A stretch of DNA of 64,000 nucleotides, from NCBI GenBank assembly GCA_049282095.1, contig JBAPTI010000004.1, positions 1,770 through 65,769 of the forward strand, written 5' to 3'. The translations under genes were made by a program, and so were the position numbers. Origin of the DNA: Chthoniobacterales bacterium (GTDB lineage Bacteria > Verrucomicrobiota > Verrucomicrobiia > Chthoniobacterales > UBA6821). Position 1 is the first letter of the stretch. Every line of letters starts with the position of its first letter. The notes beneath the pieces were generated by a model, which did no database searches, was not told where the DNA came from, and saw only the letters and a program-made list of their open reading frames with translations. This document shows positions 45,059-61,988 of this stretch, one piece after another.

Positions 45059-45133
<75 letters not shown>

Positions 45134-45633
45134 CTTCAAAATCAGCCAAAATTACTCTTTCAGGCTGATGAATAAAGGCTCTACGGGCAACTTCCCTCCC
45201 TGGCCCCTCCTCGCGGATTTCCGCGGATCCTGCGAAATTTTTGTTACCTTTTGTTACCTTTTTTGAACTCTTCGCGGTCATTCGGGACGTGCATCAGAAT
45301 GTCTCTGGGTGTGATGGTTTTGACTCAGAGACGGAAATTACCCAACAGCCCAAGTTTTTGCGCAAACTCGATCACTGGGAAAAACATGCCTACCAGTCCA
45401 CTTGATCGAAAAGGCTCAGGCGTGATCATGCCTCGAAGACCCCTCGCCTCGATGCAATCGATTTCGCAATGAATGAGGTTTAAAATTCCTCGCAGCGGCC
45501 GCACATGAATTTTGCGCCAGGCAATAAATACAAAAAAGGCACAATCTTTATTCAAAAACTCGATTTGGCCTCAAATTGGATTGCAACAAGGGGTATAAAT
45601 ACATATTTTGCCTAAAACGTTTTTAATCCACCT

Positions 45634-46770
45634 ATGAACATAGAGAAGTTTCACCCAGGGGAACTCCGCCAGCAGTATCACTACCAGAGCTTCCAACCCA
45701 GCCCAGTGAATCATTCCTGGACTTGGGAGGATCCCGAAATTCATAGCTTGCTGGCCGAGGCCAATAGACGCTTAGGAGAGCTCAATGGCCTCTCGTTAAT
45801 CGTCCCCGATATTGACCTCTTTATCCAGATGCATGTGGTCAAGGAGGCTCAAACCTCTAGCCGTATCGAAGGCACTCGCACGGAGATGGACGAGGCTTTG
45901 GAGGAGAGTCCTGAGCAAATTACTCCAGACAAACGTGACGACTGGCAGGAGGTGCGGAATTACATCAATGCGATGAATAGCTCGATCGAGGCGCTGGGCA
46001 CTCTACCTCTTTCGAACCGCCTCCTTTGTCAGGCACACGCTACTTTGCTCGACGGAGTGAGAGGAGAAGGCAAGACGCCCGGGGAGTTTCGACGCAGTCA
46101 AAATTGGATTGGCGGAGCCACCCTTGCAGATGCCGTCTTCATTCCGCCACATCACGAGGAAGTCCATGCTCTCATGGGTGATCTCGAGAGCCTCTGGCAC
46201 AATGAGGCCATCACCGTTCCTTACCTGATACGCATTGCAATCAGTCACTACCAGTTTGAAACAATTCATCCATTCCAAGATGGCAATGGCCGTATTGGCC
46301 GACTCCTCATAGTTCTCTACCTTGTCAGCAAGGGGCTCCTTCACCGGCCTTGTCTCTATATTTCTGATCATCTCGAGAAGCATCGCAGTGCCTACTACGA
46401 CTCTCTTATGGCCGTCCGCACCCGCGGCGATCTAGGCCAATGGATCCGATTCTTCTTGGTAGCCGTTATCGAGACCTCGAAGCGTGGAGTGGAAACCTTC
46501 CAGAAAATTCACCGCCTTCGTCAGGAAACCGCATCGCGCATCGCCACCCTTGGGCATCGAGCATCCAGGGCTCAGCAGGCTCTCGATCACATATACCGCA
46601 AACCGATTATTACTGGAGCACAGCTCGCTTCTCAACTTGGCATCAGTCAACCAACCACTGATCGACTTCTCGCCAATCTTGTAAACCTCGGCATTCTCGA
46701 GGAGTTGACCGGCAAGAAGCGCAATCGTGTATTCTGCTACCGCGAATACTACCAGCTTTTCCTTTCCTAA
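45634..46770 (+). CDS. Fic-family protein (AMPylase-type) with C-terminal winged-helix domain
   Basis: Canonical Fic motif HPFQDGNGRIGR. C-terminal ...ITGAQLASQLGISQPTTDRLLANLVNLGILEE is HTH-like. Confidence 0.85.
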   Translation: MNIEKFHPGELRQQYHYQSFQPSPVNHSWTWEDPEIHSLLAEANRRLGELNGLSLIVPDIDLFIQMHVVKEAQTSSRIEGTRTEMDEALEESPEQITPDKRDDWQEVRNYINAMNSSIEALGTLPLSNRLLCQAHATLLDGVRGEGKTPGEFRRSQNWIGGATLADAVFIPPHHEEVHALMGDLESLWHNEAITVPYLIRIAISHYQFETIHPFQDGNGRIGRLLIVLYLVSKGLLHRPCLYISDHLEKHRSAYYDSLMAVRTRGDLGQWIRFFLVAVIETSKRGVETFQKIHRLRQETASRIATLGHRASRAQQALDHIYRKPIITGAQLASQLGISQPTTDRLLANLVNLGILEELTGKKRNRVFCYREYYQLFLS

Positions 46771-46796
46771 AGGCACGAAAACAAAAGTTGGATATT

Positions 46797-47375
46797 ATGT
46801 ATCATTACTCTTGGCATCAAAGCTCTAATGTAAGCAGGCAGAAATATACCTGTGGTTTTTGCAGCTCTATTGTATCTCCAGATCATGGATACCAAACTGC
46901 AAATGGAGTCGGTCACACTGCGCGAATTTACATCTGTCCGAATTGCGGCTGTCCGACTTTCTTTGGAGCGGATAAAAAACAGGTCCCAGCAATTAGACTA
47001 GGAAACGAAGTAAAAGGGATTACAGATGAACATGTTCAATCTGCATATAATGAAGCAAGAGATTGCAGTGGTTGCGGAGCATACAGCGGTTCCGTTTTAT
47101 TATGTAGAAAACTCTTGATGAATATAGCTGTAAACCATGGCGCGAAAGCCGGGGAAAGTTTCTCTTACTATATTGATTATCTTGAGTCTAACGGATTTGT
47201 GCCTCCTAATGGAAAAGCCTGGGTTGATGTAATTAGAAAAAAAGGGAATGAGGCAACTCATGAGATTCCAATTATGAGTTCGGCAGATGCACAACAAGTG
47301 CTGCATTTTACGGAAATGCTATTGCGATTTATTTATGAGTTTCCAAGCATGATTCCCCAAGAAAATACTGTGTAA
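46797..47375 (+). CDS. Zinc-ribbon + DUF4145-like helical domain protein
   Basis: CGFC...CPNCGC ribbon. C-terminal LLCRKLLMNIAV...VIRKKGNEATHEIP resembles the DUF4145 R..GN.a.H block. ATG 46797 (TTG 46788 in the ORF track). Confidence 0.5.
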   Translation: MYHYSWHQSSNVSRQKYTCGFCSSIVSPDHGYQTANGVGHTARIYICPNCGCPTFFGADKKQVPAIRLGNEVKGITDEHVQSAYNEARDCSGCGAYSGSVLLCRKLLMNIAVNHGAKAGESFSYYIDYLESNGFVPPNGKAWVDVIRKKGNEATHEIPIMSSADAQQVLHFTEMLLRFIYEFPSMIPQENTV

Positions 47376-47444
47376 TAAAAACTTATTATATAGCTGGTTC
47401 TGTGAAATTTTTCGGAGCACACCATTAGTCAAATAATTTTACAT

Positions 47445-48272
47445 ATGAGTGATGATAACACTATTCGCGATACAGCTGATGCAATTAAAGGCATTGTAGA
47501 AGCGGTGCCCGTCTACCAAGATGTAATGCAGCCGGCAGCAAAAGAAGTGGGAGCCGCCTTACAAACCGTAGCTAAAACACTACATGTTTTACTTGCACCT
47601 GTTTCTGCTCTTGTGTGGGGATATGATAAAATCAAAGATCATGTTACAACGAAAGTAAGCGAAAAGCTTAAAGATATTCCTCCAGAGCGAATGAAGATGC
47701 CTGAGCCGAGCGTGGCAGGTCCAGCTCTTGAGGCTTTGCGATATACTGGTTATCAGGAGACGCTTCGTGATTTGTATACAAACTTACTCGCGACCTCTAT
47801 CGATTCAGCTACTGCACACCAAGCCCATCCGGCTTTTGTTGAAATTATTAAGCAGATGTCTCCCGATGAAGCGCTCATAATTCGTGCGCTTTCAACTTTG
47901 CCTATAAGGCCGATGCTCGATGTCCGATTCGAAAAGTCCGATAGTAATCTGGGCCGATGGGTGATTAGATATTTTTCTTTAGTAGCAAACGAAGCTGGCG
48001 TAAAACACACGGACCTCAGCGCTAACTATCTAATTAATCTGCAAAGACTTGGATTAATTGAACTGAGAGAGAATTACACATTGCACAGCGAAGAGGGAGA
48101 TGTATATCAGCCCCTTCGTGAGACTACTCAAGTACAAAATGTGGTAAATCAATACAATGCTCTAGATGGACATAAGACTGCATTTACCCCTGGTGCAATC
48201 ATCACCACTGAACTTGGCAATCTTTTCATTCGCGCATGTGTCATCGATGGCACTCATGCGTTAAAAGTATAA
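47445..48272 (+). CDS. Abi-alpha (DUF4393) abortive-infection-family protein
   Basis: 275 aa. PAAKEVGAAL..., PEPSVAGPALEALRY, LRDLYTNLLATSID and HPAFVEIIKQMSPDEALIIRAL match my recollection of the DUF4393 profile. Confidence 0.55.
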   Translation: MSDDNTIRDTADAIKGIVEAVPVYQDVMQPAAKEVGAALQTVAKTLHVLLAPVSALVWGYDKIKDHVTTKVSEKLKDIPPERMKMPEPSVAGPALEALRYTGYQETLRDLYTNLLATSIDSATAHQAHPAFVEIIKQMSPDEALIIRALSTLPIRPMLDVRFEKSDSNLGRWVIRYFSLVANEAGVKHTDLSANYLINLQRLGLIELRENYTLHSEEGDVYQPLRETTQVQNVVNQYNALDGHKTAFTPGAIITTELGNLFIRACVIDGTHALKV

Positions 48273-48401
48273 GCCAATCGAGTAGGAAGATTAACGCATC
48301 GGGCCTTGGAAAACAGCCTGATTCCGTATTTTGATCACCTCTCATGAAGAGGCCGCATGAGATCCGGGCAGAGGATTTTCAGATGCGGTTTGAACAGCCT
48401 C

Positions 48402-49448
48402 TCACCATTCACAGCAGCCCGGATTGCTGATTCTTGAGATCGAGTGGCGGAGGCGGGCTTCGCTGTATTGTTCAAACAGGGCGGGGTTTTCCTTACGGAG
48501 CCGCTGGAGTTGTTCCCGCAGCGGATCGGGAGCGGGAGGCTCTTCCTCGGGAATATTGAGGGGAGCTGGTGGCTGGGTTTCTTTTCGACGAAAGATCGAG
48601 ATGATGGAGCCCAGCAAGCCGGGGCTGGTTTCAGGCTTGGGAGCATCGGGTGGGCGGAAATCCACGCGGGAGAGCGTGGGGAAGCCCTTGGCCAGCTTAA
48701 GAAAATCCTGGGCGGACATATCGTAGATAAAGGCATCAACGCTTTCCAGTGGGGCCAATCCCAGATCCACTGCGCGCTGACGGAGCAATTCCATATCCCG
48801 CTTCAGGCCCTCTTCCTTGCGGGCTCGAACCTCCTCGGAAACTTTCGCTGAGAACATGCGGTCAAAGGTGATGTCGTCATCATCCTTTTGTTTGGTAATG
48901 CGTGGCTTAGCCGGCCTCTCTTTCTCCTCAGGCTGGCTTTTCATAAAAGCGATCATCTCCACTCGTGGTTCCGGAGGATGAGGGGGCAGCCCCAGCTCTT
49001 CCAACCGACTCCAGAGGACACGCATTCCCTCGATCTCGGGAAAGATCTTCACAAAGAGCTCTCCTCCCATCAGCTCGAAATGGGCTCTGAGAGCCTCCAA
49101 CTTCGATGACAAGGCCTCCTGGTGCTGGTCGCGAAGGGTTTGATTGATTCCGCCGTTCATTCGCTCGGGATCACGTGGGAGCAGTTCGCAGGATTCGAGT
49201 TTGATACGCTCACGGATGAGACCCTCCAGAAGGCTGGAGGGCCAACCTTCGAGCTTCTGCTCCGAGATGATGTGATTTCCGGTGAATAGCCCGGCCATGA
49301 ACCTCCATCTCTTTTCGTGATACGCCTTCGTCTCGGGCAGGGCATCCCACGTGCTGCGCATCCGAGCGTAGGCGACGAAGAGATCGGGGGGAGAGATGTA
49401 GGGATCGGGTGGGGGCTTCATCTCAATCTCATGTTGGTGGGCGTTCAT
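48402..49448 (-). CDS. Hypothetical protein (orphan, charged central region)
   Basis: 348 aa, codon usage looks coding. 94 nt downstream of the M28 gene on the same strand. No motif recognised. Confidence 0.55.
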   Translation of the reverse strand: MNAHQHEIEMKPPPDPYISPPDLFVAYARMRSTWDALPETKAYHEKRWRFMAGLFTGNHIISEQKLEGWPSSLLEGLIRERIKLESCELLPRDPERMNGGINQTLRDQHQEALSSKLEALRAHFELMGGELFVKIFPEIEGMRVLWSRLEELGLPPHPPEPRVEMIAFMKSQPEEKERPAKPRITKQKDDDDITFDRMFSAKVSEEVRARKEEGLKRDMELLRQRAVDLGLAPLESVDAFIYDMSAQDFLKLAKGFPTLSRVDFRPPDAPKPETSPGLLGSIISIFRRKETQPPAPLNIPEEEPPAPDPLREQLQRLRKENPALFEQYSEARLRHSISRISNPGCCEW

Positions 49449-49542
49449 CGTGTCCTGCTGCTCACTCGTCGAGGATTCCTCTGCCCGGCAGTCCCATCAG
49501 GACTGACAAAGACGATCGCCATGGAAAATTCCGGCGACGGTT

Positions 49543-50457
49543 TCATGCCTGCTGCTTTTGGAGCGCCTCGACTGCGTTAGCAATTCTCCGTGTGAGCAGG
49601 GCCATGCGATGGTAATTGAGTTTTTCGGGCGTGTCGGATGAGCGGTGGTAGTGAGTGTTGCGGCACATGGCCGTGTCGGTGAGCATGATGGCCGGATAGC
49701 CCTCGTCCCAGTAGGAGAGGTGGTCAGACAGACGCAAAAAATCCCCCAGGAAGTCGGTCGAGAGAACAGGCAGGTCGTCGTCGCGTTCGAGTCCTGCATC
49801 GAACGAATCCATGAAATCCCGGGAGATTTCATTTCCGACAATGGCAAGAAAGTTGCCGATCGTAGGGTCGACACCGCTCAGGCGGCAAAAGTGATTGAGC
49901 TCCTCCGGGATGCCGAGAAAGCCAATCAATCCGAGAGACTGGGAGTCCGGCTCGTTGGTAAAAACACCGAGGCTTTCCAGACAGATCATCCCGGCGACGT
50001 TTTCATCGCGCTGACGGCATGATTTGGCATGGACGACACTTCCCATGTTGGAGGTGCAGAAATGAGGAGGCTCCTCGTTGGCAAAGGCGACAAATCGGAG
50101 CGCTTCGGCGCAGGGCTTTCCTGCAAATATCCGGGCCAATTCCAAAAGGATGGCAACAGCGGAGGCGTTGTCATCCGCTCCGGGAGTGCCAGGGGCCGAG
50201 TCGTAATGGGCACCGATGATGTAGTGGGGCTTGTCATAACCGACGAATGTGGACGGTAGAGCTTCGACATTGGCGCAGAGGACACCGTCCGCACGGAATT
50301 CCTGCCGGCTCACCTGATAATCCAGCCCCTGAAACGCTCCCGCCAAATAATTTGCAGCGCGCTCCAAGCCCTCGGGACAATTGCCCGTATTGCGTTCGGA
50401 AGCGCATAGCGTGGCAACATGAGATTTGAGAGCGGATTCGAGTCCTGAAAGATTCAT
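49543..50457 (-). CDS. M28-family zinc peptidase fold (aminopeptidase or glutaminyl-cyclase-like)
   Basis: HYDS, GADDNASAVAILLELAR, NEEPP and SDHLSY metal-ligand blocks. ATG 50457 (MNLSGLE...) is preferred over 50649 because the upstream extension covers a nucleotide-level repeat read in a different frame at its second copy. Confidence 0.7.
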   Translation of the reverse strand: MNLSGLESALKSHVATLCASERNTGNCPEGLERAANYLAGAFQGLDYQVSRQEFRADGVLCANVEALPSTFVGYDKPHYIIGAHYDSAPGTPGADDNASAVAILLELARIFAGKPCAEALRFVAFANEEPPHFCTSNMGSVVHAKSCRQRDENVAGMICLESLGVFTNEPDSQSLGLIGFLGIPEELNHFCRLSGVDPTIGNFLAIVGNEISRDFMDSFDAGLERDDDLPVLSTDFLGDFLRLSDHLSYWDEGYPAIMLTDTAMCRNTHYHRSSDTPEKLNYHRMALLTRRIANAVEALQKQQA

Positions 50458-50486
50458 GGATGAGGTTATCACGATACTGATTTCTT

Positions 50487-50559
50487 CCACCTTACCTCCA
50501 TCCGACGACAGGAAGTGTCTATCCCCATCTTTTTTTCCAGGTGGACACTTCCTGTCGTC
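50487..50559 (-). promoter_or_regulatory. Conserved 5' element copy 1 (33-nt block + 16-bp perfect hairpin)
   Basis: Block 50487-50519 is 30/33 identical to 52492-52524. Stem gacgacaggaagtgtc (50504-50519) pairs with gacacttcctgtcgtc (50544-50559), loop 24 nt. Ends 29 nt upstream of the M28 ATG. Confidence 0.6.
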
Positions 50560-50680
50560 CCCGGTTATGCGATAATCCTCCTTGAAACAGAAGATCAGAA
50601 AGGGCAGCTGACCGGGCGCGAGCCCGTTATGGTGGGATTGCCCGTCCACCCTGTTTCCCTCAACTCAACCACCCCCAAAT

Positions 50681-50818
50681 ATGATCACTGATCCCACGCC
50701 TACCCCTGAAGAGACCATTGCTAAAAAGGCCGAGCCTCAAGCCGATGACTTTGATCTTCCTGCCGAGAGACAGGATGGCACCAACTGCACCGACGACATC
50801 TGCACCGTCTGCCAGTAG
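50681..50818 (+). CDS. 45-aa acidic peptide with Cys/Thr-rich C-terminus (candidate RiPP precursor or small metal-binding peptide)
   Basis: My translation: MITDPTPTPEETIAKKAEPQADDFDLPAERQDGTNCTDDICTVCQ. Below the ORF-track length cutoff. Followed within 45 nt by a strong terminator. Confidence 0.45.
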   Translation: MITDPTPTPEETIAKKAEPQADDFDLPAERQDGTNCTDDICTVCQ

Positions 50819-50860
50819 TAGATTGACGCTCCCAGCTGACTTTGCAAACCGGAGTGCGTA

Positions 50861-50900
50861 GGCCGGGCTAGGGTTAACCCCTTCCCGGCCATTTTCATTT
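50861..50900 (+). terminator. Rho-independent terminator after the 45-codon ORF
   Basis: ggccggg-cta-gggtt/aaccc-ctt-cccggcc composite stem, followed by attttcattt. Confidence 0.7.
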
Positions 50901-51014
50901 CGGGGTCAGTCTGTCTCCTACGTCTTCTCCTCTCTTCACCGGCGCACCTAGCATCCAAGCCCGAACTGATGCTCGCAGGAAAGACCCATCAGCGGAAAAG
51001 CAACGGATAACAGT

Positions 51015-51371
51015 TTATCTGTCCGGGCGATGAGTAGAATCGGGTTCACCATCCGAGGCCAACGAACCAGGCCAGAAGGACGAGAGAACCTTTGGTTGCT
51101 CAGGCGTTGCGGGAGACTCCTTAACTGTATCAACAAGGAGTGAAGGGTCGTTGATGTAGCGATCAAAGAATTCCCGGATCGGCATGGTGATGTTCGATTG
51201 CGGTGTTGGGAAGACGGCCACGAGATCTTCCCCCACAATCTCGCCAGCGAATTTTTCGCCCTTACTGACAACACGGCAGGGGGTGTGCGGGCATCCCTCC
51301 CAATCCATGCGATGAAGGTGATCAATCAGGTGATCAATGACTGCGCGGAGGAGTGGAGGATCGGATTTCAT
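51015..51371 (-). CDS. Hypothetical protein (118 aa)
   Basis: 37 nt downstream of the 342-aa gene on the same strand. No motif recognised. Confidence 0.5.
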   Translation of the reverse strand: MKSDPPLLRAVIDHLIDHLHRMDWEGCPHTPCRVVSKGEKFAGEIVGEDLVAVFPTPQSNITMPIREFFDRYINDPSLLVDTVKESPATPEQPKVLSSFWPGSLASDGEPDSTHRPDR

Positions 51372-51408
51372 GAGGAGTTTACAGATTTTTTCGGGCAGCA
51401 GGATTCAA

Positions 51409-52437
51409 TCAATTCAGCACATCCGCCAGATCGTTCATGAATGCGGTCAAAACCGAATGCTCCTCGTCGCACTCGCCGGGTAATGAAGAAAACCGCACCT
51501 TGATATAGGCATCGAAACGGCCCGCCAGCAGAATCGTCGACATGAATCTTTCCTCTTCGGGTAAGGCCGTGCCGATCAGAAATCTGGCGTCTCTGAAGGG
51601 AAGAGCATCCCTGCCGTAGGTCGTGACACTGTTGCGAAGTGCCTTGAGACCGGAGACTGCATGGTGGGCTTCCAGCTCCGATACAGAGCCTTCCATCTGT
51701 GCTATCACTTGGTCCGAATCATGACCGGGTTCGATCAGCTCCTCCTGGAGATCGTAGATGTAGAGATCTACTTTACGGCCATCATCATCCCCATAGCGCA
51801 GGCTGATCCCTTCTCCGGGACCCGTGGACTCATAATCCGTGGCGAAGCAATAGGACATACCCCCCATCTCCTCGGGAAAGCGAATCCGGATTTTGTCGAC
51901 GGACAACCAAGAGGTCGATGAGTTGATGCGAGGTTCGCCCATGCTGCAGTAGGCGAATCGCATGGAGTTCTTGAGGAGATGATCCAGCCCTGCAAAACTA
52001 GGATCACCATGCCACGCCTCAGCTCCCCTTAGTGCCATGGAACTTCCGATGAACGACCGATCCTCCGTCAAGTGACCCAGCAGGTAATAGGACCGGCATT
52101 CGCCATCCGCCATGGAGTAATGACTGGTCATCATGAACCCATTGGCCATGGGTATCAGCCTGAGCGGGCCATCTTCCGGGAAGCCTGGGATGAACTTCCT
52201 CATCGTCTGATCGATGGATTCGGTGGAAACTCCGAATTGCTCGAGGTCATCACTATCGAAGGCGCAAGTTGCCCATTCGATCTCCAGCGGAAGATCTCCC
52301 ACTGAAAAAATCATGGAACCCTTCTCGGAAGTCGTTCGAAAAACCAATTCCGAGGGGAGTTGAATCCGGAAGATCCCATCATCGTAAATCTCTGATTCGC
52401 CCGAAAACTCGAGATTGCCCTTTGGGATGATGTTCAT
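51409..52437 (-). CDS. Hypothetical protein (342 aa, orphan)
   Basis: ATG 52437 (MNIIPKGNLEF...). The upstream 43 codons of the ORF-track entry cover the conserved non-coding block. No motif recognised. Confidence 0.55.
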   Translation of the reverse strand: MNIIPKGNLEFSGESEIYDDGIFRIQLPSELVFRTTSEKGSMIFSVGDLPLEIEWATCAFDSDDLEQFGVSTESIDQTMRKFIPGFPEDGPLRLIPMANGFMMTSHYSMADGECRSYYLLGHLTEDRSFIGSSMALRGAEAWHGDPSFAGLDHLLKNSMRFAYCSMGEPRINSSTSWLSVDKIRIRFPEEMGGMSYCFATDYESTGPGEGISLRYGDDDGRKVDLYIYDLQEELIEPGHDSDQVIAQMEGSVSELEAHHAVSGLKALRNSVTTYGRDALPFRDARFLIGTALPEEERFMSTILLAGRFDAYIKVRFSSLPGECDEEHSVLTAFMNDLADVLN

Positions 52438-52491
52438 GGGGAGTGTGAGGATGTGTTGGAAAATGGATGGTATGAAATTAGTGCGATAATT

Positions 52492-52563
52492 CCACTCTAC
52501 CTCCATCCGACGACAGGATGTGTCCACCTGGTGGTTTTTGACGGAATCACGACATCTCCTGTC
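52492..52563 (-). promoter_or_regulatory. Conserved 5' element copy 2
   Basis: Block 52492-52524 (ccactctacctccatccgacgacaggatgtgtc). Imperfect partner arm gacatctcctgtc at 52551-52563. Ends 54 nt upstream of ATG 52437. Confidence 0.6.
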
Positions 52564-52634
52564 CATCCTGCGGTGGCAAAATCCATTCTTTCAAACGACG
52601 ATTCCACCCAGATCTCCATTCCCTGTCCTCTCCA

Positions 52635-53372
52635 ATGCCCCGCATCGCTCTCATCTCCGATATCCATGGCAACATTGATGCCCTGGAAGCCGTGGTTGAG
52701 GACATCGGACGGCAACGGATCGATGAGATCTTCTGCCTCGGGGATATCGTCGGCTACGGGGCGGCTCCTGCCGAGTGCCTGCAGCTGGTTCGCGAGCACT
52801 GCACAGAGACGATCCTGGGCAACCATGATGAGTATCTGGTCAAGGGGCCCGATAACTATGTCCTGAGCAAGCGGATCGGTATCCCGCTCCTGCTTGCCCG
52901 GCAGACGATTCCCGGTGAGGACTTGCAGTGGCTGAGAGAGCGCCCCTACACGGTTGATCGGCACGGCTTCTCGATCGTCCATGGGACCCTGCACCACCCT
53001 GAGGAGTTCTACTACCTGCTGGAGCGCCGGGATGCAGTTCTGCACTTTGAGCAGCAGCGCACCCCGCTCTGCTTCCACGGGCATTCCCACCGTCCTCTCA
53101 TCACCCTGTCACAGCCCGATGGAGACATCCGTTGGGGCATCCCGTGGGAGACCGAGACGCTGCTTGACCGGAACCAAAGGCTGGCGATCAATGTTGGCTC
53201 CGTCGGCCAGCCTCGGGATCAGGATCCCCGCGCCGCCTACGGGATCTACGACATGGAGCAGAACTCCTTCACCCTGCGCAGAGTGGACTACGACATCGAG
53301 AAGGCCATTCAACGAATCGTGGACGCCGGAATTCCCGAGGAGAATGCCCGAAGGTTACGGGATGGGGTATGA
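52635..53372 (+). CDS. Calcineurin-like metallophosphoesterase
   Basis: SDIHGN, GDIVGYG, GNHD and HGHSH motifs. 245 aa. Confidence 0.8.
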   Translation: MPRIALISDIHGNIDALEAVVEDIGRQRIDEIFCLGDIVGYGAAPAECLQLVREHCTETILGNHDEYLVKGPDNYVLSKRIGIPLLLARQTIPGEDLQWLRERPYTVDRHGFSIVHGTLHHPEEFYYLLERRDAVLHFEQQRTPLCFHGHSHRPLITLSQPDGDIRWGIPWETETLLDRNQRLAINVGSVGQPRDQDPRAAYGIYDMEQNSFTLRRVDYDIEKAIQRIVDAGIPEENARRLRDGV

Positions 53373-53385
53373 AGAGGTTGGGCAC

Positions 53386-53841
53386 TTACTCTCTTTGTTT
53401 CAGGGATTCAAGAGCGTCGTCGTATGCTTGTTGTAATCTAGCAGCTTTTTGAGCTCTCTCTCTTAGAGTTCTGGAGGTTACCTTCCCTGACTTTTTTGGG
53501 TGACTTGCAGCTAAGAGTTTTTCATATGCAGCATGAATCTCTTGCTCAGTTGCATATGGCTTGATTTTAAAAACTCTCCACCAAGGGTCGCGATCATCAG
53601 GAAGCGAAGACAACACGATTATTTTTTCTGATTTAGATAAAGAACTTTCCTTTTTTGAAAATGGATCTTTTGAAAGCCTGAAATCAGGAAACTTTATTTC
53701 GCCCCTTTGCACTTTCCCACGTAGCCACCCAGCGAAATCTTTACTTTTACTATACAAGTATCCAATAGCCGCTCGTTTTTGTTGTGGGGAAAGTTGATCC
53801 CAGTAACTTTTTGCTGTTTCAAACGCAGTTTTCTTTTTCAT
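53386..53841 (-). CDS. J-domain-like protein (HPD replaced by HPK)
   Basis: C-terminal ATEQEIHAAYEKLLAASHPKK...AQKAARLQQAYDDAL follows the J-domain helix II / loop / helix III pattern. AT-rich gene. Confidence 0.45.
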   Translation of the reverse strand: MKKKTAFETAKSYWDQLSPQQKRAAIGYLYSKSKDFAGWLRGKVQRGEIKFPDFRLSKDPFSKKESSLSKSEKIIVLSSLPDDRDPWWRVFKIKPYATEQEIHAAYEKLLAASHPKKSGKVTSRTLRERAQKAARLQQAYDDALESLKQRE

Positions 53842-54382
53842 CGTCACGCCTGCTCGTTTCTTTTTTAGTAACTAACACATTTTTTATATCTTGAAAGAAT
53901 TTGGGCCAACTAAAATAGGCAAACGCCTTTCTAATCTCTAGCATCTTTTTACTGATGTCATATTCATCATTTTCCATAAATGTTTTAACAAAATCTGATG
54001 TTGTTCTCCATCTGTCTGCGCCGACTATAAACAATAGATCTTCATCTTTGAAATCACCACAAATAATCCTCCACCAAATTGTTGAAAATGGTATTGGGCC
54101 TATTATATCGGATCCTTCTTTTCTATAAAAAACCCATGGATCCTCGTCATTCTCTCGACCTGTAAAAGAAATATTCTTCCCGTGTACTGGGGAAGGAGGT
54201 ATTGCGCTACTAAGAGGCTGTGCATTGTCTATTATGTCATTAATCTTAAACAAATCATCTTCTTTAAGATGACCAATACGAAACAATGATATCACAATAT
54301 CATAAGGCCAAGAACCCAACTCGGAACCATCTCTATAGATTGTTAGATATTTTTTATCTTTTTTCTGAATATCGGATTTCAT
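53819..54382 (-). CDS. Protein with two GYF_2 (DUF4339)-like domains
   Basis: YLTIYRDGSELGSWPYDIVISLFRIGHLKEDDLF and WVFYRKEGSDIIGPIPFSTIWWRIICGDFKDEDLLFIVGADRW. AT-rich gene that overlaps the next gene. Confidence 0.5.
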   Translation of the reverse strand: MKSDIQKKDKKYLTIYRDGSELGSWPYDIVISLFRIGHLKEDDLFKINDIIDNAQPLSSAIPPSPVHGKNISFTGRENDEDPWVFYRKEGSDIIGPIPFSTIWWRIICGDFKDEDLLFIVGADRWRTTSDFVKTFMENDEYDISKKMLEIRKAFAYFSWPKFFQDIKNVLVTKKETSRRDDEKENCV

Positions 54383-54434
54383 AGTTTGTTAGGATTTGGG
54401 AATCGCTTAGTTTATAGGCAATCAAGCGTATTAT

Positions 54435-57365
54435 TTATTGAATGGGCTTGATGCAATCAGAGGTGATGTAGGGGGTTGGATCGGTGATGATTGGGGGGAG
54501 GCCGGGGGCGGTGACGGGTTGGCCGGCGGTGATTCTCGCGGCGACGGATTGGTTGAGCGCGAGAAGCTGGGCGAGGAGGTCGGCCTTGGGATCGAAGCCG
54601 TAGGCCGAAAGGACAGCGGCATCGAGTGCGGCATGGGCATCCTTCAGCGGATTGGCTCCGGGGAGTTCGAGGGTGCGGTAGAGAGCACGGAGGCCGCCTT
54701 TGAGGTGTTGGATCGCCTCTTCGCGGATGCGGCGAACTTCACGCCCCGCTGCGGCCACGGCCTCGATAGCCTTGGCACTAGGGTCCTGTGGCCACGGGAA
54801 GGTGTCGAAGACAGATTCCGCACTGTAACGGAAATCGGATTTTAGTTTTCCGCATTTGGTAACAAACCAAAGCCAGTGCAGATGGGACTGAAGGATTCCG
54901 AAGCTGTAATCATCGGCAAATCCAAAAACCTGAATCAGATTGCTGGGCCTGAAAGCCTGATCGATGAATAGGAAGACCGGTCGCTTGGTGACATAGGCAC
55001 ACGCGAGGTAGCGAGGAAGGGGACGCAGGACGGAGAGCATCTCCGGACGGCCAAAGCTGAGTTGCCACCAGCGGGCTAGGAAGGCTTTGTGATGGCCGCG
55101 CATGTTCCCATCAGCATCTTTGCCATCCTCAGCCTTCTTCTCTCGATCGGGCAGGACTTGGGTCTTCACCCAGTCAAAGGCTCCACTGTATCCCGCTGCC
55201 GTGAGTTGATCCATCTGCTCGAAATCCAAAACAAATCGGCTGCTTGTACCCTTAGTCAGAACCTCTAGCCCATTCAAATACGGGTGAATCACCGCAGATG
55301 ATTTTGGATCTTTAATCAGAATCTCGTCTCTCTGTTCCTTCGTGAGCAAAAATCCTTCATGTCCGAGCATCTGGCCATTGAAACAGCGCTGGGGTTTGGT
55401 ATTGCAGTCGAGTGGCCCGGCTGTGCTGACATCGGTCTGATCGCTCAGGGCTGAGTTGATGACCGGAACATCACGGAAGTTGAGTTCGTATTCTTTCGAG
55501 GCTTTTTTCCCCTGTTTCTTCCACTGCTTTTTTGTCGCGGCGGAGGGCTCGACCTTATGCCAGAGGCGGCGGGTTCTCGGTAGGAGAGCGGGCTCCTGGG
55601 TCTTCACCCAATTCGCAATGGAGACGTGGACATTCGCCTCGCCGCTCCAGGGCTGGTTATCGACGGCCTCCACGATGGTGCCCTCCTTCACGATGTGATC
55701 GAGGCCGCCGACACGGGAGGCGTTGTTGCGGATGTTCTGTGTGCCGACGAGTCCGGCGCGGCCAGCTACGGGATCGGCAGGAGTACAAGGAGGCAAGTGG
55801 TCATGGGCGCGGCGGAACCAATAGACGCAGAAGTCGGCCATGCCGGGCACTTCGGGGTAGAGGGCGCGGAGTTTCTTCACGTAGTCGGGGCCGAGCTCGG
55901 GCTTGAGCAACTTGGCTCCGAGGAAGGGGGGATTTCCGATGATGGCGTCGGCCTTGGCCCATTCGGTGCGGGTGGCTTTTCCATCGGCTCCCTCGACGAG
56001 GAGGGCATCAGAGGCGATGAAGTTTCGATCGAGATTGTCGAGTGGCAGGGGACGCTCGGTGATGTGGAGTTCATCGATGGCGAGCTTCCTCGCGATCATC
56101 ATTGTGACCTTGGCCAGCTCAACGGCGAAGGGGTTGATGTCCATGCCGTGGAAGTTCTGTGCCGAGAGGAAGGAGAGGCGCATTTGGTCGCCGGCGGCCT
56201 TGCTCGGGAACTCGGTGTCGAGGCGTTCGTAGATGCGGGCCTCGAGGCGCTTCATCTCGCGGTAGGCAATGTAGAGGAAGTTCCCGGAGCCACAGGCGGG
56301 GTCGAGAACCTGGAACTCCTGAAGGCGGTGGAGGAGCTTTCCAAGGTCACGGGCGGTGGTGGCCTTCTCGATCTCCTTGCGCCATGGCTCGACGATTGTA
56401 GGGCCGACGATCTTCATGATGTCGGCGGGGTGGGTGAAGTGGGCGCCGGAGGCGTGGCGCTCTTCCTTGTCCAAGGTCTGCTCGAAGACGGTGCCGAAGA
56501 TCTCGGGCTGGACCTTGGACCAGTCGGAGGCCGCGCATTCCCGGAGCAGGACGATCTCGGGGCCTGTGAGTTCGAGCTCGGCGGGCTGACTGAAGACGCC
56601 GCCATTGAAGTAGGGGACGCCCTTGAAACGGCCTCCGGCGTTTCCGGAGGAGTTGTTCATCGCTCGGAAGAGGCCTCCAATGAGGTCGTAGCTGGTCTTC
56701 TCATCGACCTCGTCAAGGAGGCGGGTGACGAAATAGCGCTCCAAGAGCCCGATATCCTCGGCAAAGAAGGCGATCAGGATCTGGAGGATGAAGCGTTGGG
56801 CGAGAGGACGATCGACGCCCCGGGAGACGAGAAGATTGAAGCACTTCGCGAGCTTCGCCGCGGCCTCACGGGTGACGGCGACGTGCTCATTCTCAAAGAC
56901 GGGCTTGGGCTGGTCGGGGAAGAGGAAGGCGAGGGAGCCGTAGTTCTCTGCAAGGTCGGCCAGCTTGACCCTTCCTACGGGTGAATCCATCTGGGTCTCG
57001 AAGTCGTAGATCTCGAACTCGTCGAAGTTGCAGAGGATGACGTAGCGTGGGCGGCCGGGAACGAGTCGCGTCCAGTAGTCGAAGGCCTGGCGGTAGTGTT
57101 TCGAGAGCACGGTGCCGCGCTTCTTCATCTCGATCAGGACGAGCGGCTTCCAGACGAAGTCGGCAAAGGCGGTGCCGCCGCCATCCTCAGAGGCCTTGCG
57201 AACGCGGTACTCGGGCTCACCTCCCACATCGAGCGATCCGGGGTGACCGAATGCCTGAAAGAGGCGGTCGAGGAAGATGTGGGCTTCTCCCTTCTCATCC
57301 CCCTTCACATGGAGGCGCGCCCACTCGATAAAGGAGGAGAGTTTGTCGGTGCGGGAATCGCTCAT
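54435..57365 (-). CDS. MmeI-family type IIL restriction-modification enzyme (fused nuclease / N6-adenine methyltransferase / TRD)
   Basis: 976 aa. N-terminal D...ExK nuclease block (FADFVWKPLVLIEMKKRG), methyltransferase motif I VLDPACGSGNFL and motif IV IIGNPPFLG. Confidence 0.75.
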   Translation of the reverse strand: MSDSRTDKLSSFIEWARLHVKGDEKGEAHIFLDRLFQAFGHPGSLDVGGEPEYRVRKASEDGGGTAFADFVWKPLVLIEMKKRGTVLSKHYRQAFDYWTRLVPGRPRYVILCNFDEFEIYDFETQMDSPVGRVKLADLAENYGSLAFLFPDQPKPVFENEHVAVTREAAAKLAKCFNLLVSRGVDRPLAQRFILQILIAFFAEDIGLLERYFVTRLLDEVDEKTSYDLIGGLFRAMNNSSGNAGGRFKGVPYFNGGVFSQPAELELTGPEIVLLRECAASDWSKVQPEIFGTVFEQTLDKEERHASGAHFTHPADIMKIVGPTIVEPWRKEIEKATTARDLGKLLHRLQEFQVLDPACGSGNFLYIAYREMKRLEARIYERLDTEFPSKAAGDQMRLSFLSAQNFHGMDINPFAVELAKVTMMIARKLAIDELHITERPLPLDNLDRNFIASDALLVEGADGKATRTEWAKADAIIGNPPFLGAKLLKPELGPDYVKKLRALYPEVPGMADFCVYWFRRAHDHLPPCTPADPVAGRAGLVGTQNIRNNASRVGGLDHIVKEGTIVEAVDNQPWSGEANVHVSIANWVKTQEPALLPRTRRLWHKVEPSAATKKQWKKQGKKASKEYELNFRDVPVINSALSDQTDVSTAGPLDCNTKPQRCFNGQMLGHEGFLLTKEQRDEILIKDPKSSAVIHPYLNGLEVLTKGTSSRFVLDFEQMDQLTAAGYSGAFDWVKTQVLPDREKKAEDGKDADGNMRGHHKAFLARWWQLSFGRPEMLSVLRPLPRYLACAYVTKRPVFLFIDQAFRPSNLIQVFGFADDYSFGILQSHLHWLWFVTKCGKLKSDFRYSAESVFDTFPWPQDPSAKAIEAVAAAGREVRRIREEAIQHLKGGLRALYRTLELPGANPLKDAHAALDAAVLSAYGFDPKADLLAQLLALNQSVAARITAGQPVTAPGLPPIITDPTPYITSDCIKPIQ

Positions 57366-57454
57366 AGGGGAGATGTGAGACGTTTAGCGGATGAGCGACT
57401 CTCTGGCGAGGGGATTGACTGACTGGAGCAGGCTCTTGATGCGAACAAAGGGGG

Positions 57455-57919
57455 TTATCGGAAATTTCCGTGAATCCATCGGGCGTGGGCAAAGCAGCTC
57501 TCGATGATCCGATCACGAACGAGGTGTTCGGCCTCGGTATCCGACAACTTCCGATCCTCCATGACCGGGAGGATGATTTCCTCGTGAAGCTCCCAATCGC
57601 TCATGCGCGGAAGCTTCCCGTAGAGCGCGAAGAGATCGGCGGCCATGTCCCAGTAGTAGCGCCACATCCCGGTGAGGCTTTCCGAAACCTCGGAATCCCT
57701 CACCCACTCACAGAATGCCTGATACGAGGCGAATCTCCCCTCGATCAACGCATCAGGCCCCATGACCTCGTCGCAGAGATCGCCCAGGATGCTGACTGCT
57801 GTCATCAGGAAGGAGCGCATGGCGCCCGCCCCGGTGAGGAGATGGTAGGTGTCCGAGGCTCTTTCTGACTCCGAAAGGAAGTCGTCGATGGTGAGTCGGG
57901 GTTGCTGGTGGCTGGCCAT
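57455..57919 (-). CDS. Hypothetical protein (about 154 aa)
   Basis: ATG 57919 (MASHQQPRL...) lies 17 nt after the upstream gene stop. No motif recognised. Confidence 0.5.
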   Translation of the reverse strand: MASHQQPRLTIDDFLSESERASDTYHLLTGAGAMRSFLMTAVSILGDLCDEVMGPDALIEGRFASYQAFCEWVRDSEVSESLTGMWRYYWDMAADLFALYGKLPRMSDWELHEEIILPVMEDRKLSDTEAEHLVRDRIIESCFAHARWIHGNFR

Positions 57920-57936
57920 GGGGTGGAAAAAGTCTG

Positions 57937-58650
57937 TCACCGGAGGTGCTTGGGAACGAAGTAGTTCCGGATCCACCATACCCCCACCATGAAGCAGGGC
58001 CCTGAAAACATGAAGGCTCCGGGGGCGAAGGACTCGCTCTGCTCGGAAAGAAACACGAGCAGGATCGCCGAGATACCCACCAGGATCGCGGTGAAGCCCA
58101 GAAAGAGAAAGAAGCCATCCTGATAGCCGTCCCGGTGGAAATCGCCGATCATGCGGTTCCAGTTGTCCTTGAAGCTCTTGGGATCGGGACGACTGTCAAA
58201 CAACTGTGCAAATGCACCAAGCATCACAAGCGGGCCGAGAATCCACCCGATGAATGGCAGGAGCAGCAGCAGGAGACCCAGAATCAGGCATCCGAGAGAT
58301 TCCTTGGCCCGTTCTTTGAAGGGTTTGTAACCGCTTGGAAAACTGGCTGCCAAGTAGGGTGCGATGTTTCGTTGTCCAGGAGCGGGTGAATTCAAGTAAG
58401 GTTTCTCCTCTTGAGTAGCATCTAGGGTTGGTGTCACTCGAACCATGGATGACGAATGCAGGAGTGCAGGCTCTCTGAGAAAGACTTCCAGTGGCTTCCA
58501 TTTACCTCCCTCTTCTCTAGCCAAATCAGAAAGCGTGATCCGTCCCTCCACAAGCATGGCGTCGATGAGATCCATGCCGAAGGGGCCGTAGATCTCGTCT
58601 TCGCGAAGGATGAAGATCATCGTCTTCTCAGAAGGCCACGGTTGTTTCAT
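57937..58650 (-). CDS. GYF_2 domain + four-TM membrane protein
   Basis: MIFILREDEIYGPFGMDLIDAMLVEGRITLSDLAREEGGKWKPL, then hydrophobic helices. Start is ambiguous (58668 TTG, 58650 ATG, 58620 ATG). Confidence 0.55.
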   Translation of the reverse strand: MKQPWPSEKTMIFILREDEIYGPFGMDLIDAMLVEGRITLSDLAREEGGKWKPLEVFLREPALLHSSSMVRVTPTLDATQEEKPYLNSPAPGQRNIAPYLAASFPSGYKPFKERAKESLGCLILGLLLLLLPFIGWILGPLVMLGAFAQLFDSRPDPKSFKDNWNRMIGDFHRDGYQDGFFLFLGFTAILVGISAILLVFLSEQSESFAPGAFMFSGPCFMVGVWWIRNYFVPKHLR

Positions 58651-58715
58651 GAACCCACTCTTCCACAACCGGGTAGACAGGAGGTGTCTAGTCAGCGGGA
58701 ATAAATTCCCTGCGC

Positions 58716-59783
58716 CTATTCACCATAGACCGATGCCAATGCGCGGGCTTTCTCCGCGATCGTTTTCCGGAGGAGAGCGGGGGCGATGACCTTCACAGTG
58801 GCTCCCCAGCCCAAAATCCATGGCTCGATCTCGAGGAAGGTCGGCTTGGCGAAGGGGAGTTCCATACGGATGCGCCCACCGGCAAGGGGAGTCGTCTTCT
58901 GCTCAGGGTGCCAGAGAGTCTCCGAGGCTCGTTGGGCCGCACCCGCCTCGAACTCGAGTACGACGGGCTGCTTAGGCTTCCGGTCGCTGGCCACAATCCC
59001 GAAACTATAACGGAAGCTCTCAGAGGGTTCCCTTGAATCGGGTACGAATGTCGCTTCGGTAATCCGAGCATTGCTGATGCGAGCGAATTTGAGGGTTCGG
59101 CGTTCGGAGGTTCCTGCCTTGGTGGCATGGAGGTACCAGGAGCCGTTGCGCATGAAGACGAAGCGGGGTTCGAGTGTTCTGGAATCCTTAGGGCCGACGG
59201 ATGGCTTGTAGTCGAGGACGACACGGCGGCTCTCGCGGATAGCCCGGTGGAGGAGCTCGAAGAGGCGGACGTCTTCCTTTCCGATCTCGGGCTTTCCCTC
59301 GAAGCGGAAGTGGACGGAGCTCTCCCACTTCTTCCAGTCGGTGGTGCCGGTGAGGATGCCGAAGGTGTGCTCGAAGGACTCGATCATGCTGCGCCCGATT
59401 TCTGTGGAGCGGTAGGGCTCTAGGCACTGGCGCAGGAAGTGGAGCGTGAGCAGGTCACGGTCCCCGATCTGGACGATCGGTAGGTGCTTGAGATTACCAC
59501 GCAGGGCGTAGCCCCGCCGAGCCTTGTCATGGACAATCTCGTTCGTCTGTTTTTCTCCTTCGATATTGCCCAGAAGCGCATTCAGTTGCGCGATGTCGCG
59601 CTGAATCGTTCGAGTATCGACCTCGCAGATCTTGGAGAGCTTGGCGAGTGAGGGGTAACGCTTGTTCTGAACCTCCGAAAAAATCAGGAAAAGCCGATGG
59701 ATGTGATCACGGGAGGTGTTTCCATGGATCTGCTTACGTTTTTTAGCGGGCGGCTTGCCGGATGACTTTCTAGATGAGGCCAT
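58716..59783 (-). CDS. HTH + WYL-domain transcriptional regulator (BrxR/CapW-like architecture)
   Basis: N-terminal HTH (SLAKLSKICEVDTRTIQRDIAQL), literal WYL triad (NGSWYLHAT), C-terminal WCX-like tail (EPWILGWGATVKVIAP). Confidence 0.75.
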   Translation of the reverse strand: MASSRKSSGKPPAKKRKQIHGNTSRDHIHRLFLIFSEVQNKRYPSLAKLSKICEVDTRTIQRDIAQLNALLGNIEGEKQTNEIVHDKARRGYALRGNLKHLPIVQIGDRDLLTLHFLRQCLEPYRSTEIGRSMIESFEHTFGILTGTTDWKKWESSVHFRFEGKPEIGKEDVRLFELLHRAIRESRRVVLDYKPSVGPKDSRTLEPRFVFMRNGSWYLHATKAGTSERRTLKFARISNARITEATFVPDSREPSESFRYSFGIVASDRKPKQPVVLEFEAGAAQRASETLWHPEQKTTPLAGGRIRMELPFAKPTFLEIEPWILGWGATVKVIAPALLRKTIAEKARALASVYGE

Positions 59784-59845
59784 AGCTTTATCCGCCACCG
59801 ATAACCCCTCACACACGGCCTGACGAGTGGATTTCTAGCTCTTGT

Positions 59846-60115
59846 CTAGAGGGTCTCTTCCGGTGGAAGAAAGTCCTTCACATCCATGGGATGCTTCCGT
59901 TTTAACAAGAAGCTATAGAGCCTCCATTCCGGATCCGGAACGGTTTGCTTGTATGGCGGAAAAATGACCGTCGTCGTCCTCAGGCCGTCGACTGCCTCCT
60001 GGCGGTAGAAGCTTTCGACCTGCTTGGGGCGGAAGACGAAGTCGTTGATGATGACAAAGTCAGAGTAGTTGTCCGGTGCGATGCTGTATTTGTTGTTGGG
60101 TCCTGTGATGGGCAT
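59846..60115 (-). CDS. Hypothetical protein (89 aa)
   Basis: ATG 60115. Overlaps the relaxase 3' end by 56 nt. No motif recognised. Confidence 0.35.
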   Translation of the reverse strand: MPITGPNNKYSIAPDNYSDFVIINDFVFRPKQVESFYRQEAVDGLRTTTVIFPPYKQTVPDPEWRLYSFLLKRKHPMDVKDFLPPEETL

Positions 60116-61166
60116 GGTGTTGTTGGTTGTAGTGTTGGTGTTCTAGGAGATAGGTACGTTTGAGCTTGGTAAGGGTCTGCTGCATCTGGCGGAGAGAACG
60201 GCATTGAGCAGCGACTCCGAGTTTTTCCCCAGCTCGTAGCAGGGGGTTCTTTCTGGCCATCAAAACCTTTTCGGCTGCCCGTGCGGCACGAAGGAGAGTC
60301 AGCTGTTTCTTCTTTTCGGCAATGGTCGCTTCTAGCCCTAAGATCGACTCGTAGGATTGGCGCAAATGGGATGCCGCCTGGTGATCCACGTCAATCAAGG
60401 CGATCCGCTGGGCAGCTGAAAGCCTTGGCACAATCGCTAACTTTTCTTGATCGAGACGCTTCGTCAGAGACTCCTCGACCTTCTGCTGATTGGAGAGGAA
60501 TTCGCCTCGGAGCTGATTCTCCCGCTCGAACCATTCTCTCATGAAAACCATCTGGTTTTTATGCCTCCCGGGATGTCGGGACATGCTGCATCCAACGTAT
60601 CGTCCCTTCGCACTTCTGGGACACAGGGCGACGTGAACATGGAGGTTATCCGTGTCGTGATGGAGCCCGTAGGCATAGCCAATCGAGTCACTCCGATGGA
60701 ACTTCTCGGCGAACCGTTCCATCACCTTTTTGACACTGGAAATCACCACCTGATCGGGGCTGATCCCGGCCTTTACGAGAGCATCGTGCTGCTCGGTCGA
60801 CATCGAAAAAACGAGCCGATGAGCCACGACAGGCTGCTTCGCCTGAGATCCAAAACGATTCAGATGATGCCTCCAGACCTCGGTGATTCTCCTCTTCCTT
60901 TCCTCATTGGAAAGTTTGCTAGGAGCGGTGCTTGTCCCATCTGGATTCCGGCGAATCGCGTGATGCAAAAAGCCCCCGACATGAACCTGACCGAGTGATT
61001 CTTTTGAGGCATAATCCGTAAATCCCTTCAGCTTTTTTCCGACTTCTTCATCGAGCTTTTTGGCAGCACGAAGGGATGATTTTCGTCCGGAACTCTCGTC
61101 CAGATATTCCAGATCGAGCCTCCCCCGCGCCGTCGACTTGTGCGCGAAAATGAGGCCGTTCTTCAC
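60060..61166 (-). CDS. Relaxase/mobilisation nuclease (MobA/VirD2 family)
   Basis: Histidine triad context GLHHDTDNLHVHVAL. GTG start overlaps the upstream stop (GTGA). Confidence 0.6.
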   Translation of the reverse strand: MKNGLIFAHKSTARGRLDLEYLDESSGRKSSLRAAKKLDEEVGKKLKGFTDYASKESLGQVHVGGFLHHAIRRNPDGTSTAPSKLSNEERKRRITEVWRHHLNRFGSQAKQPVVAHRLVFSMSTEQHDALVKAGISPDQVVISSVKKVMERFAEKFHRSDSIGYAYGLHHDTDNLHVHVALCPRSAKGRYVGCSMSRHPGRHKNQMVFMREWFERENQLRGEFLSNQQKVEESLTKRLDQEKLAIVPRLSAAQRIALIDVDHQAASHLRQSYESILGLEATIAEKKKQLTLLRAARAAEKVLMARKNPLLRAGEKLGVAAQCRSLRQMQQTLTKLKRTYLLEHQHYNQQHHAHHRTQQQIQHRTGQLL

Positions 61167-61957: not shown

Positions 61958-61988
61958 TGCCTCTGTAGATGTGTTTTATTTGGTGGCT

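Follow-up and report, generated by a model that had tools for sequence, protein, structure and literature searches.

The question raised by this locus is why two genes on one genomic island of a Chthoniobacterales bacterium (Verrucomicrobiota) begin behind nearly the same short block of DNA, each copy of which has an inverted repeat beside it. We analyzed a 64,000-nt stretch of this genome (GenBank assembly GCA_049282095.1, contig JBAPTI010000004.1, positions 1,770 to 65,769 of the forward strand), hereafter the window, whose own numbering is used throughout. The block fronts two minus-strand genes, one encoding an M28-family peptidase (gene A) and the other a 342-amino-acid (aa) protein (gene B), and the two proteins are unrelated to each other. 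A preliminary description of the repeat had offered three readings, namely an operator, a leader RNA and a riboswitch-like element. Our analysis supports the operator type of reading: we consider it probable that the two repeat copies are bidirectional promoter regions, each with two back-to-back boxes, in the regulon of a WYL-domain regulator encoded on the same island.

We first describe the repeat itself. Direct reading bore out that the 33-nt blocks at 50487-50519 and 52492-52524 are identical at 30 positions, and a repeat finder lengthened the direct repeat to 35 nt (50485-50519 versus 52490-52524, 32 of 35 identical, 2005 nt apart). The repeat finder also recovered the perfect 16-bp inverted repeat reported for copy 1, in which 50504-50519 pairs with 50544-50559 and 24 nt lie between the arms. 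At copy 2, the partner arm at 52551-52563 (GACATCTCCTGTC) matches at 11 of 13 positions, and the described extension of the left arm was found as well, the 23 nt at 52509-52531 being 96% complementary to 50537-50559 with 1949 nt in between. The distances from block to start codon were also as given, 29 nt for copy 1 (ATG at 50457) and 54 nt for copy 2 (ATG at 52437). When a 28-mer pattern of the block was searched with up to 3 mismatches, it matched the two block sites and nothing in 100 shuffled sequences, indicating that the block pair is not due to chance. The N-terminal extensions of the open reading frames (ORFs) read the block in different frames (DRHFLSSDGGKVE versus VDTSCRRMEVEWN), so that conservation is at the nucleotide level and not at the protein level, as had been concluded before. 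Both copies sit between divergent genes, a point that the preliminary description had missed: copy 1 is flanked by the peptidase gene (minus strand) and a 45-aa ORF (plus strand), and copy 2 by gene B (minus strand) and a metallophosphoesterase gene (plus strand). Scans of genome and metagenome contig collections with the 20-base core CATCCGACGACAGGANGTGTC gave chance coding matches only, such as one inside an accD-like coding sequence of a Lachnospiraceae metagenome-assembled genome (MAG), and two scans of viral contigs, one of them with a 21-base stretch of the block, found nothing; therefore, the block does not belong to a dispersed copy family.

The conserved core of the repeats was an oriented 13-nt box, GACAC-N-TCCTGTC, and the pattern GACA-N5-TGTC was present in all four arms. 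This pattern occurred exactly 5 times in the 64-kb window, where 0.83 occurrences were expected. All five sites read GACA(C/T)-N-TCCTGTC and lie in intergenic regions of the low-GC island, and the 45 kb of core genome that the window also includes had no box. Dozens of copies scattered irrespective of gene starts, as in a plain dispersed repeat, were not seen; the five window copies are all at gene starts. The extended consensus, gtgGACAc.TCCTGTCcac, is a dyad with GTGGACA and TGTCCAC ends, which makes the site 13-19 bp long. With a position weight matrix (PWM) built from all box instances, the five window boxes scored 23-27 bits when the flanks were counted and 21-23 bits when only the 13 nt were, as against 11 bits for the runner-up in the window. 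Four of the five boxes form two back-to-back pairs (50507-50519 with 50544-50556, and 52512-52524 with 52551-52563), within which the boxes point apart, one toward each divergent gene, with their centres 37-39 bp apart. In the first pair, box 1a (GACACTTCCTGTC, 50507-50519, minus strand, 22.7 bits) faces the M28 peptidase gene 49 nt before its ATG at 50457, and box 1b (GACACTTCCTGTC, 50544-50556, plus strand) faces the 45-aa ORF. In the second, box 2a (GACACATCCTGTC, 52512-52524, minus strand, 23.2 bits) faces gene B 74 nt before its ATG at 52437, and box 2b (GACATCTCCTGTC, 52551-52563, plus strand, 21.1 bits) faces the metallophosphoesterase gene. The fifth, box 3 (GACACCTCCTGTC, 58676-58688, minus strand), begins 27 nt past the stop codon of the WYL gene and lies exactly 25 nt before the ATG at 58650 of a gene for a GYF-like protein.

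A -10-like hexamer starts 12-14 nt past the box in the window. Specifically, the 35-nt block consists of the box, a 12-nt spacer (GTCGGATGGAGG) and a TARRGT hexamer, and ends about 4 nt before the predicted transcription start, so that both copies read TGTC-N12-TARRGT. In copy 1 (50485-50519, minus strand) the hexamer is TAAGGT (50489-50494), followed by 4 nt, and transcription is predicted to start near 50482; in copy 2 (52490-52524, minus strand) the hexamer is TAGAGT (52494-52499), and the predicted start is near 52487. The corresponding hexamers are GATAAT (50571-50576) for box 1b, CAAAAT (52577-52582) for box 2b and AAGAGT (58657-58662) for box 3, from which a leaderless transcript is predicted. 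At a spacing of 17 nt, the -35 position coincides with the box bases ACNTCC or CACNTC, indicating that a TTGACA-like -35 element is absent. In addition, a sigma-70 consensus scan of 50300-52800 returned no promoter, which fits promoters that have no -35 element. Judged by its sequence, the 35-nt block is thus one complete putative core promoter.

We next compared the window with related Chthoniobacterales loci, which were fetched through homologues of the WYL protein (L005-L015) and of gene B (L016-L021). With up to one mismatch, 40 boxes were found in 12 non-redundant sources totaling 271 kb, where about 1.2 were expected. In comparison with the gene tables, about 30 of these 40 boxes were followed, on their own strand, by a called gene start toward which they point; note that called gene starts were used since a test with any ORF of at least 40 codons gave no information (control 55%). 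In the first 9 sources, an ATG lay 23-28 nt past the box in 14 of 31 boxes (mode 25; control 8.4%), and a TAnnnT hexamer lay 11-14 nt past it in 12 of 31 (control 2.2%), at 12-13 nt in most relatives. A hexamer at 13 nt and an ATG at 25 nt past the box place the hexamer at -12 to -7 from the A of the ATG, and this position, together with the frequent spacing of exactly 25 nt, indicates a leaderless promoter geometry in which the box stands upstream of the transcript. A WYL gene was present in the window, in L005-L015, which were fetched by it, and in L016 and L017, which were fetched by gene B. In the window and in L005, L006, L007, L011 and L016, the WYL stop codon is followed by the box after 27-29 nt; in L010, the box stands ahead of the WYL gene. 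The genes behind the boxes include AddB/UvrD-like operons in L009 (box at 2980) and L010 (6757), restriction-modification operons in the window and L005, and two operons in L020, one with an S24 peptidase and a metallophosphoesterase and the other with a Y-family polymerase and a gene B homologue. A more symmetric variant, ctagGACACYYRGTGTCtag (GACAC-N3-GTGTC), was also observed in L012 (1976 and 6085) and L020 (9490), 24-25 nt from an ATG; the WYL protein of these loci is only about 58-60% identical, and the variant could be the site of a paralogous regulator or reflect drift of the motif.

The relatives also bear on the inverted repeat, which the preliminary description had taken as a hairpin unit. 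Back-to-back pairs were found five times (twice in the window and once each in L009, L012 and L016), all between divergent genes and with centres 37-43 bp apart. The partner box is absent where the box-driven gene has no divergent neighbour (L019 10038 and L016 15085), indicating that the inverted repeat is two separate boxes that face opposite genes. Furthermore, complementarity between the arms hardly reaches past the box, and stems are not conserved outside it, so the hairpin as a functional unit is not supported.

In L016-L018, the gene B orthologue (89% identical) is directly followed by the M28 peptidase gene. The two make up one operon, and the one back-to-back pair ahead of it is shared by a metallophosphoesterase gene that runs the opposite way. 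Window block copy 2 is orthologous to the block at L016 9912, and box 2b to the L016 box at 9884 (minus strand). The 46-aa ORF of L016-L018 lies elsewhere behind its own single box, to which box 1b is orthologous; this unit corresponds to window 50544-50818 from the box through leader and coding sequence, with no homology upstream of the box. The window differs in that gene B and the peptidase gene are separated by gene C and the small-ORF unit, and in that the peptidase gene has a paralogous copy of the promoter of gene B. The 35-nt direct repeat thus exists because a whole core promoter, with box, spacer and -10 hexamer, was duplicated, as is backed by alignments of both promoter regions with relatives. 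The gene order between the repeats differs from that in the relatives, suggesting that the promoter blocks have probably recombined one or more times; such recombination probably gave rise to the duplication. In L019, an unrelated 182-aa gene stands behind this same block, there with spacer GTCGGGTGCAGG, and the promoter module appears to be portable.

The candidate binder of the box is a 355-aa winged helix-turn-helix (wHTH)-WYL-WCX regulator (58716-59783, minus strand; HTH_11, WYL and WCX domains), which is identical to an NCBI-listed Chthoniobacterales MAG protein. Searched against solved structures, its family profile matched PafBC (E 2e-16) and DriD (E 3e-11). The best fold match of its structure model was DriD over the full length (E 6e-15), then PafBC, with CapW at 1.5e-8 and BrxR at 2.4e-8, and the model has a helical linker between the wHTH and WYL domains; sequence identity with DriD is only about 18%. 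The WYL protein, which had already been proposed for binding assays, is the best candidate, given that each of the WYL homologues examined has the box in its surroundings and that the box agrees with the published boxes of WYL regulators.

We therefore favour a WYL-regulator regulon as the probable setting of the repeat, given the observed box with its copy number, orientation, spacing to -10 and ATG, recurrence around WYL homologues and duplication. Each box would serve one of the two divergent genes and would fill the place of the -35 element, at about -38 to -26, with a TAnnnT-type -10 hexamer after it. By analogy with DriD, DdaA and PafBC, the homodimeric wHTH-WYL-WCX protein would bind single-stranded DNA (ssDNA) arising from DNA damage or from phage or plasmid attack. 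The ssDNA-bound protein would then dock on the box and recruit housekeeping RNA polymerase to these promoters, which have no -35 element. The targets so turned on would be the M28 peptidase operon, the 45-aa ORF, genes B and C, the metallophosphoesterase gene and, by way of the fifth box, the operon with the MmeI-type restriction system. More tentatively, since we hold it somewhat less likely to be true than false, Chthoniobacterales may have a DriD/DdaA-like, ssDNA-triggered WYL regulon of portable, often leaderless promoter modules, in which copies of the regulator would travel on mobilizable islands and wire the cargo of these islands (an MmeI-type restriction system, gene B, an M28 peptidase, a metallophosphoesterase and a 45-aa Cys-rich peptide) into the damage or phage alarm of the host.

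Several points weigh against this model. Four of the five window boxes lie 49-124 nt from the ATG, so that their transcripts are leadered, and the hexamers of these four (TAAGGT, TAGAGT, GATAAT and CAAAAT) are only plausible as -10 elements. The absence of a -35 element presumes a TTGACA-like sequence, and the housekeeping consensus of Verrucomicrobiota may differ. The loci were fetched by homologues of the WYL protein and gene B, so the association of box and WYL gene is partly built into the sampling, and independent control comes solely from the flanking core DNA and from the agreement with published boxes. Among the relatives, a few boxes have no called gene to point at (L011 12995 and L012 15801), and in the window the PWM scan detected none ahead of the WYL gene. 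As for the regulator, its model is of moderate quality (pLDDT 72, pTM 0.51), HMMER did not align its wHTH domain to that of DriD or PafB, and that it retains the base-reading arginines was read from the motif TRTIQRDI and not from an alignment. Note that we infer the transcription starts, the binding protein, activation as opposed to repression, and the inducing signal.

The alternative that survives best keeps the same sites and the same binder but makes the regulator a repressor of the CapW/BrxR type, which would occupy the box and block RNA polymerase as long as the cell is unstressed and would leave the box on binding ssDNA. The regulator is encoded in a mobilizable defence island beside a restriction-modification operon, as are CapW and BrxR, and CapW also acts at a bidirectional promoter (PMC11662680); furthermore, the net outcome, induction by DNA damage, would be unchanged. 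However, the fold and profile searches placed DriD and PafBC well above CapW and BrxR, and a length of 355 aa with a helical wHTH-WYL linker agrees with the activator type. No -35-like hexamer stands at the proper spacing in the promoters; their distance from box to -10 is fixed, as in activator promoters, and the box is strictly oriented to its gene, which a simple roadblock does not require. In addition, CapW and BrxR would be recognized by membership of their clade and by control of their own bidirectional promoter, whereas the fold E-values fall on the other side and no box precedes the WYL gene in the window. We thus regard a repressor as unlikely, and activation by the WYL regulator as the better account.

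Considerably less probable is that the box is a -35-region element for an alternative sigma factor of the extracytoplasmic function (ECF) type, with the WYL gene a mere neighbour. The fixed position upstream of a -10-like hexamer would suit such a factor, and the L006 island encodes an ECF-type sigma factor (9046-9774) directly upstream of its WYL gene. This was the case in that related island only, however, and no sigma factor gene was seen in the island of the window or in the other loci. The -10 hexamer is of the housekeeping TAnnnT type, and a box of 13-19 bp with dyad-symmetric ends is typical of a dimeric HTH protein and matches the experimentally defined WYL boxes.

We give still less credence to the repeats as recombination substrates, be it for inversion of a 1.95-kb segment, for excision of a cassette or as the termini of a small mobile element. 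In its favour are a 23-nt inverted repeat (96%) around 1949 nt, a 35-nt direct repeat 2005 nt apart and the gene order that differs from relatives. On the other hand, two independent assemblies of the same strain have the segment in the same orientation, the box with its extended consensus explains most of the repeat, and single boxes front genes in the relatives. The scans of genome and metagenome contigs with the 20-base core, and of viral contigs with the 21-base stretch, showed no dispersed copy family, and no invertase gene is adjacent.

Finally, it is very improbable that the 5′ untranslated regions of the minus-strand genes hold a riboswitch-like element or a structured leader RNA: although copy 1 folds strongly as RNA (-48.5 kcal/mol for a 126-nt stretch, z -4.9), copy 2 folds no better than shuffled sequences on the plus strand (z -1.0) and only weakly better on the minus strand (z -2.1), the partner arm is absent at some orthologous promoters, no stem is conserved outside the box, the leaderless spacing in relatives sets the box upstream of the predicted transcript, and Rfam gave no match. 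Three further readings were tried and rejected. The inverted-repeat hairpin is not a terminator, since no T-run follows it on either strand; an upstream ORF or leader peptide (ATG GAG GTA ...) fails on its differing frames, the absence of a Shine-Dalgarno sequence and its place upstream of the predicted start; and an integron attC site fails since there is no IntI, there are no R′/R″ core sites, and only two copies exist.

The low-GC island (46-55% versus about 61%) starts after a tRNA gene (45059-45130) and covers 45059-64000 of the window, which stops before the far end of the island. Its cargo comprises Fic, DUF4145, Abi_alpha, the MmeI-type restriction-modification gene, a relaxase with MobC, HTH_17, TIR/SEFIR and the wHTH-WYL-WCX regulator. 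In the related islands L006 and L011, a tyrosine integrase gene was observed beside the HTH_17 gene. A PADLOC search of genes A, B and C and their neighbours gave no hit to a known defence family. Gene A (49543-50457, minus strand; PF04389, E 4e-22) is the target of box 1a. Gene B (51409-52437, minus strand), the target of box 2a, is without a Pfam family; its homologues are also called at 342 aa, and it is followed by gene C (51015-51371, minus strand, 118 aa). Gene B has about 22 clusters of homologues (L016 10001-11029 and L020 10001-11023, for example), and it keeps company with the M28 peptidase in the same operon in L016-L018, with the metallophosphoesterase and, in L020, with the S24 peptidase and the Y-family DNA polymerase; gene B looks like an uncharacterized member of a DNA-damage regulon. 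No Shine-Dalgarno-like sequence precedes the ATG of gene A or gene B, and the upstream DNA is C-rich (50458-50482 and 52438-52487, minus strand). The two leaders are weakly alike beyond the block (TATCG..TAA..TCAT.CCATCCAT), with the gene B leader having ATT at the position of the gene A ATG.

The metallophosphoesterase gene (52635-53372, plus strand), the target of box 2b, was identified by domain search and gene call. At L016 15935-16054, a box, a TATAGAT hexamer and a leaderless ATG open a 26-aa fragment (MARIALISDIH...) that corresponds to a metallophosphoesterase N-terminus and is probably a remnant of rearrangement at the promoter module. Box 3 fronts the 237-aa GYF-like gene (57937-58650, minus strand), which heads an operon running into the MmeI-type restriction-modification gene (54435-57365, minus strand). 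Between box 3 and the WYL stop codon lies a palindrome (GGGAATTTATTCCC, 58697-58710, minus strand), and L005 has a similar sequence (GGTAATTTATTGCC) at the equivalent position.

The target of box 1b is a Cys-rich small ORF of 45 aa (50681-50818, plus strand; C-terminus NCTDDICTVCQ), which is a called gene in L001 and L016-L018. The ORF is conserved at 45-46 aa with the ending NCTDD(I/G)CT(V)CQ and three Cys residues, its L016 counterpart lying at 14798-14938 (minus strand). Its leader of roughly 100 nt (50583-50680) is better conserved between loci than the N-terminal half of the peptide and holds a short ATG-GTG-GGx-TTG ORF and a CGGGC-GNRA-like hairpin; the fold of this leader is not significant (z -1.45). 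At the end of the unit, the repeat finder reported a terminator-like hairpin, GGCCGGG...CCCGGCC followed by ATTTTCATTT (50861-50890, plus strand), around which the stretch 50845-50905 folds at -32 kcal/mol (z -4.1). This hairpin probably terminates the small-ORF unit, and it may act in both directions, given that gene C ends at 51015 on the opposite strand.

Taken as a WYL-regulator regulon, the repeat with its hairpin becomes a regulatory map, in which five island promoters, and dozens in related genomes, would be under one switch. Such a regulon would tie gene B, the small Cys-rich peptide and two enzymes, the M28 peptidase and the metallophosphoesterase, to a response against DNA damage or phages, and it predicts leaderless transcription from activator-dependent promoters. 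The duplicated 35-nt core promoter is a concrete case of regulon growth; if the model is true, duplication of promoter modules is a way in which genes join a regulon, and the box could serve as a guilt-by-regulon marker for new repair and defence genes in an uncultured phylum. A text search of the open-access literature found no paper on this regulon in Verrucomicrobiota. The type of control is known, and what is new here is the phylum, the mobilizable island, and the back-to-back and partly duplicated arrangement; the model would extend the WYL-activator systems PafBC, DriD and DdaA to Verrucomicrobiota and to a mobilizable defence island.

Among the known systems, CapW and BrxR are WYL repressors that bind their own promoters next to defence systems (PMC11662680, PMC9122601). 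They share the domain architecture and the defence-island neighbourhood with the regulator described here, sense ssDNA and act at bidirectional promoters, whereas this regulator is closer to DriD and PafBC, and in the window its own promoter lacks a box. PafBC of mycobacteria works at promoters of the form tGTCgg(N10)tA(N3)T, i.e., TGTC-N12-TAnnnT, which have no -35 element and use the housekeeping sigma factor by sigma adaptation (PMC8635444). Window copies 1 and 2 have this same spacing, likewise without a -35 element and with a housekeeping-type -10 hexamer, and the PafBC regulon includes DNA damage genes, helicase-nuclease genes among them, as the putative regulon here would. However, PafBC is a heterodimer that reads one half-site at -26, whereas the box here is a full dyad, as expected for a homodimer.

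DriD of Caulobacter crescentus, the best structural match of the regulator, recognizes CGAC-N7-GTCG (PMC12392091), or more fully ATACGAC-N7-GTCGTAT (probe ATACGACAGTAACTGTCGTAT; PMC13004042). In promoters without a -35 element, its sites overlap with the -35 position and keep a constant distance to the -10 element (PMC13004042), one of its targets is a bidirectional promoter, and bapE has two sites (PMC13004042, PMC10853764, PMC9186387). The GAC-N7-GTC core is identical to that of the window box, whereas the flanks differ (ATAC there, gtg here), and here each divergent gene has its own box, 37-43 bp from the other. DdaA of Moraxellaceae binds CGWCA-N5-TGWCG (PMC12392091) and also controls restriction-modification and CRISPR genes. 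The window box, (C)GACA-N5-TGTC(G), has the same half-sites and spacing, the regulator is likewise a homodimeric wHTH-WYL-WCX protein, as predicted here, and both regulons mix DNA repair with restriction-modification or defence genes. The present system differs in belonging to Verrucomicrobiota (Chthoniobacterales), in the conserved and asymmetric centre of its box (C-N-TCC), in the location of the regulator on a mobilizable island and in the many promoters of relatives that are predicted to be leaderless, and it is known from sequence alone. Four features that mark promoters of WYL activators were found in the window and its relatives: the dyad with its half-site spacing, the box in the place of the -35 element, the regulator encoded alongside, and damage and defence genes behind the boxes.

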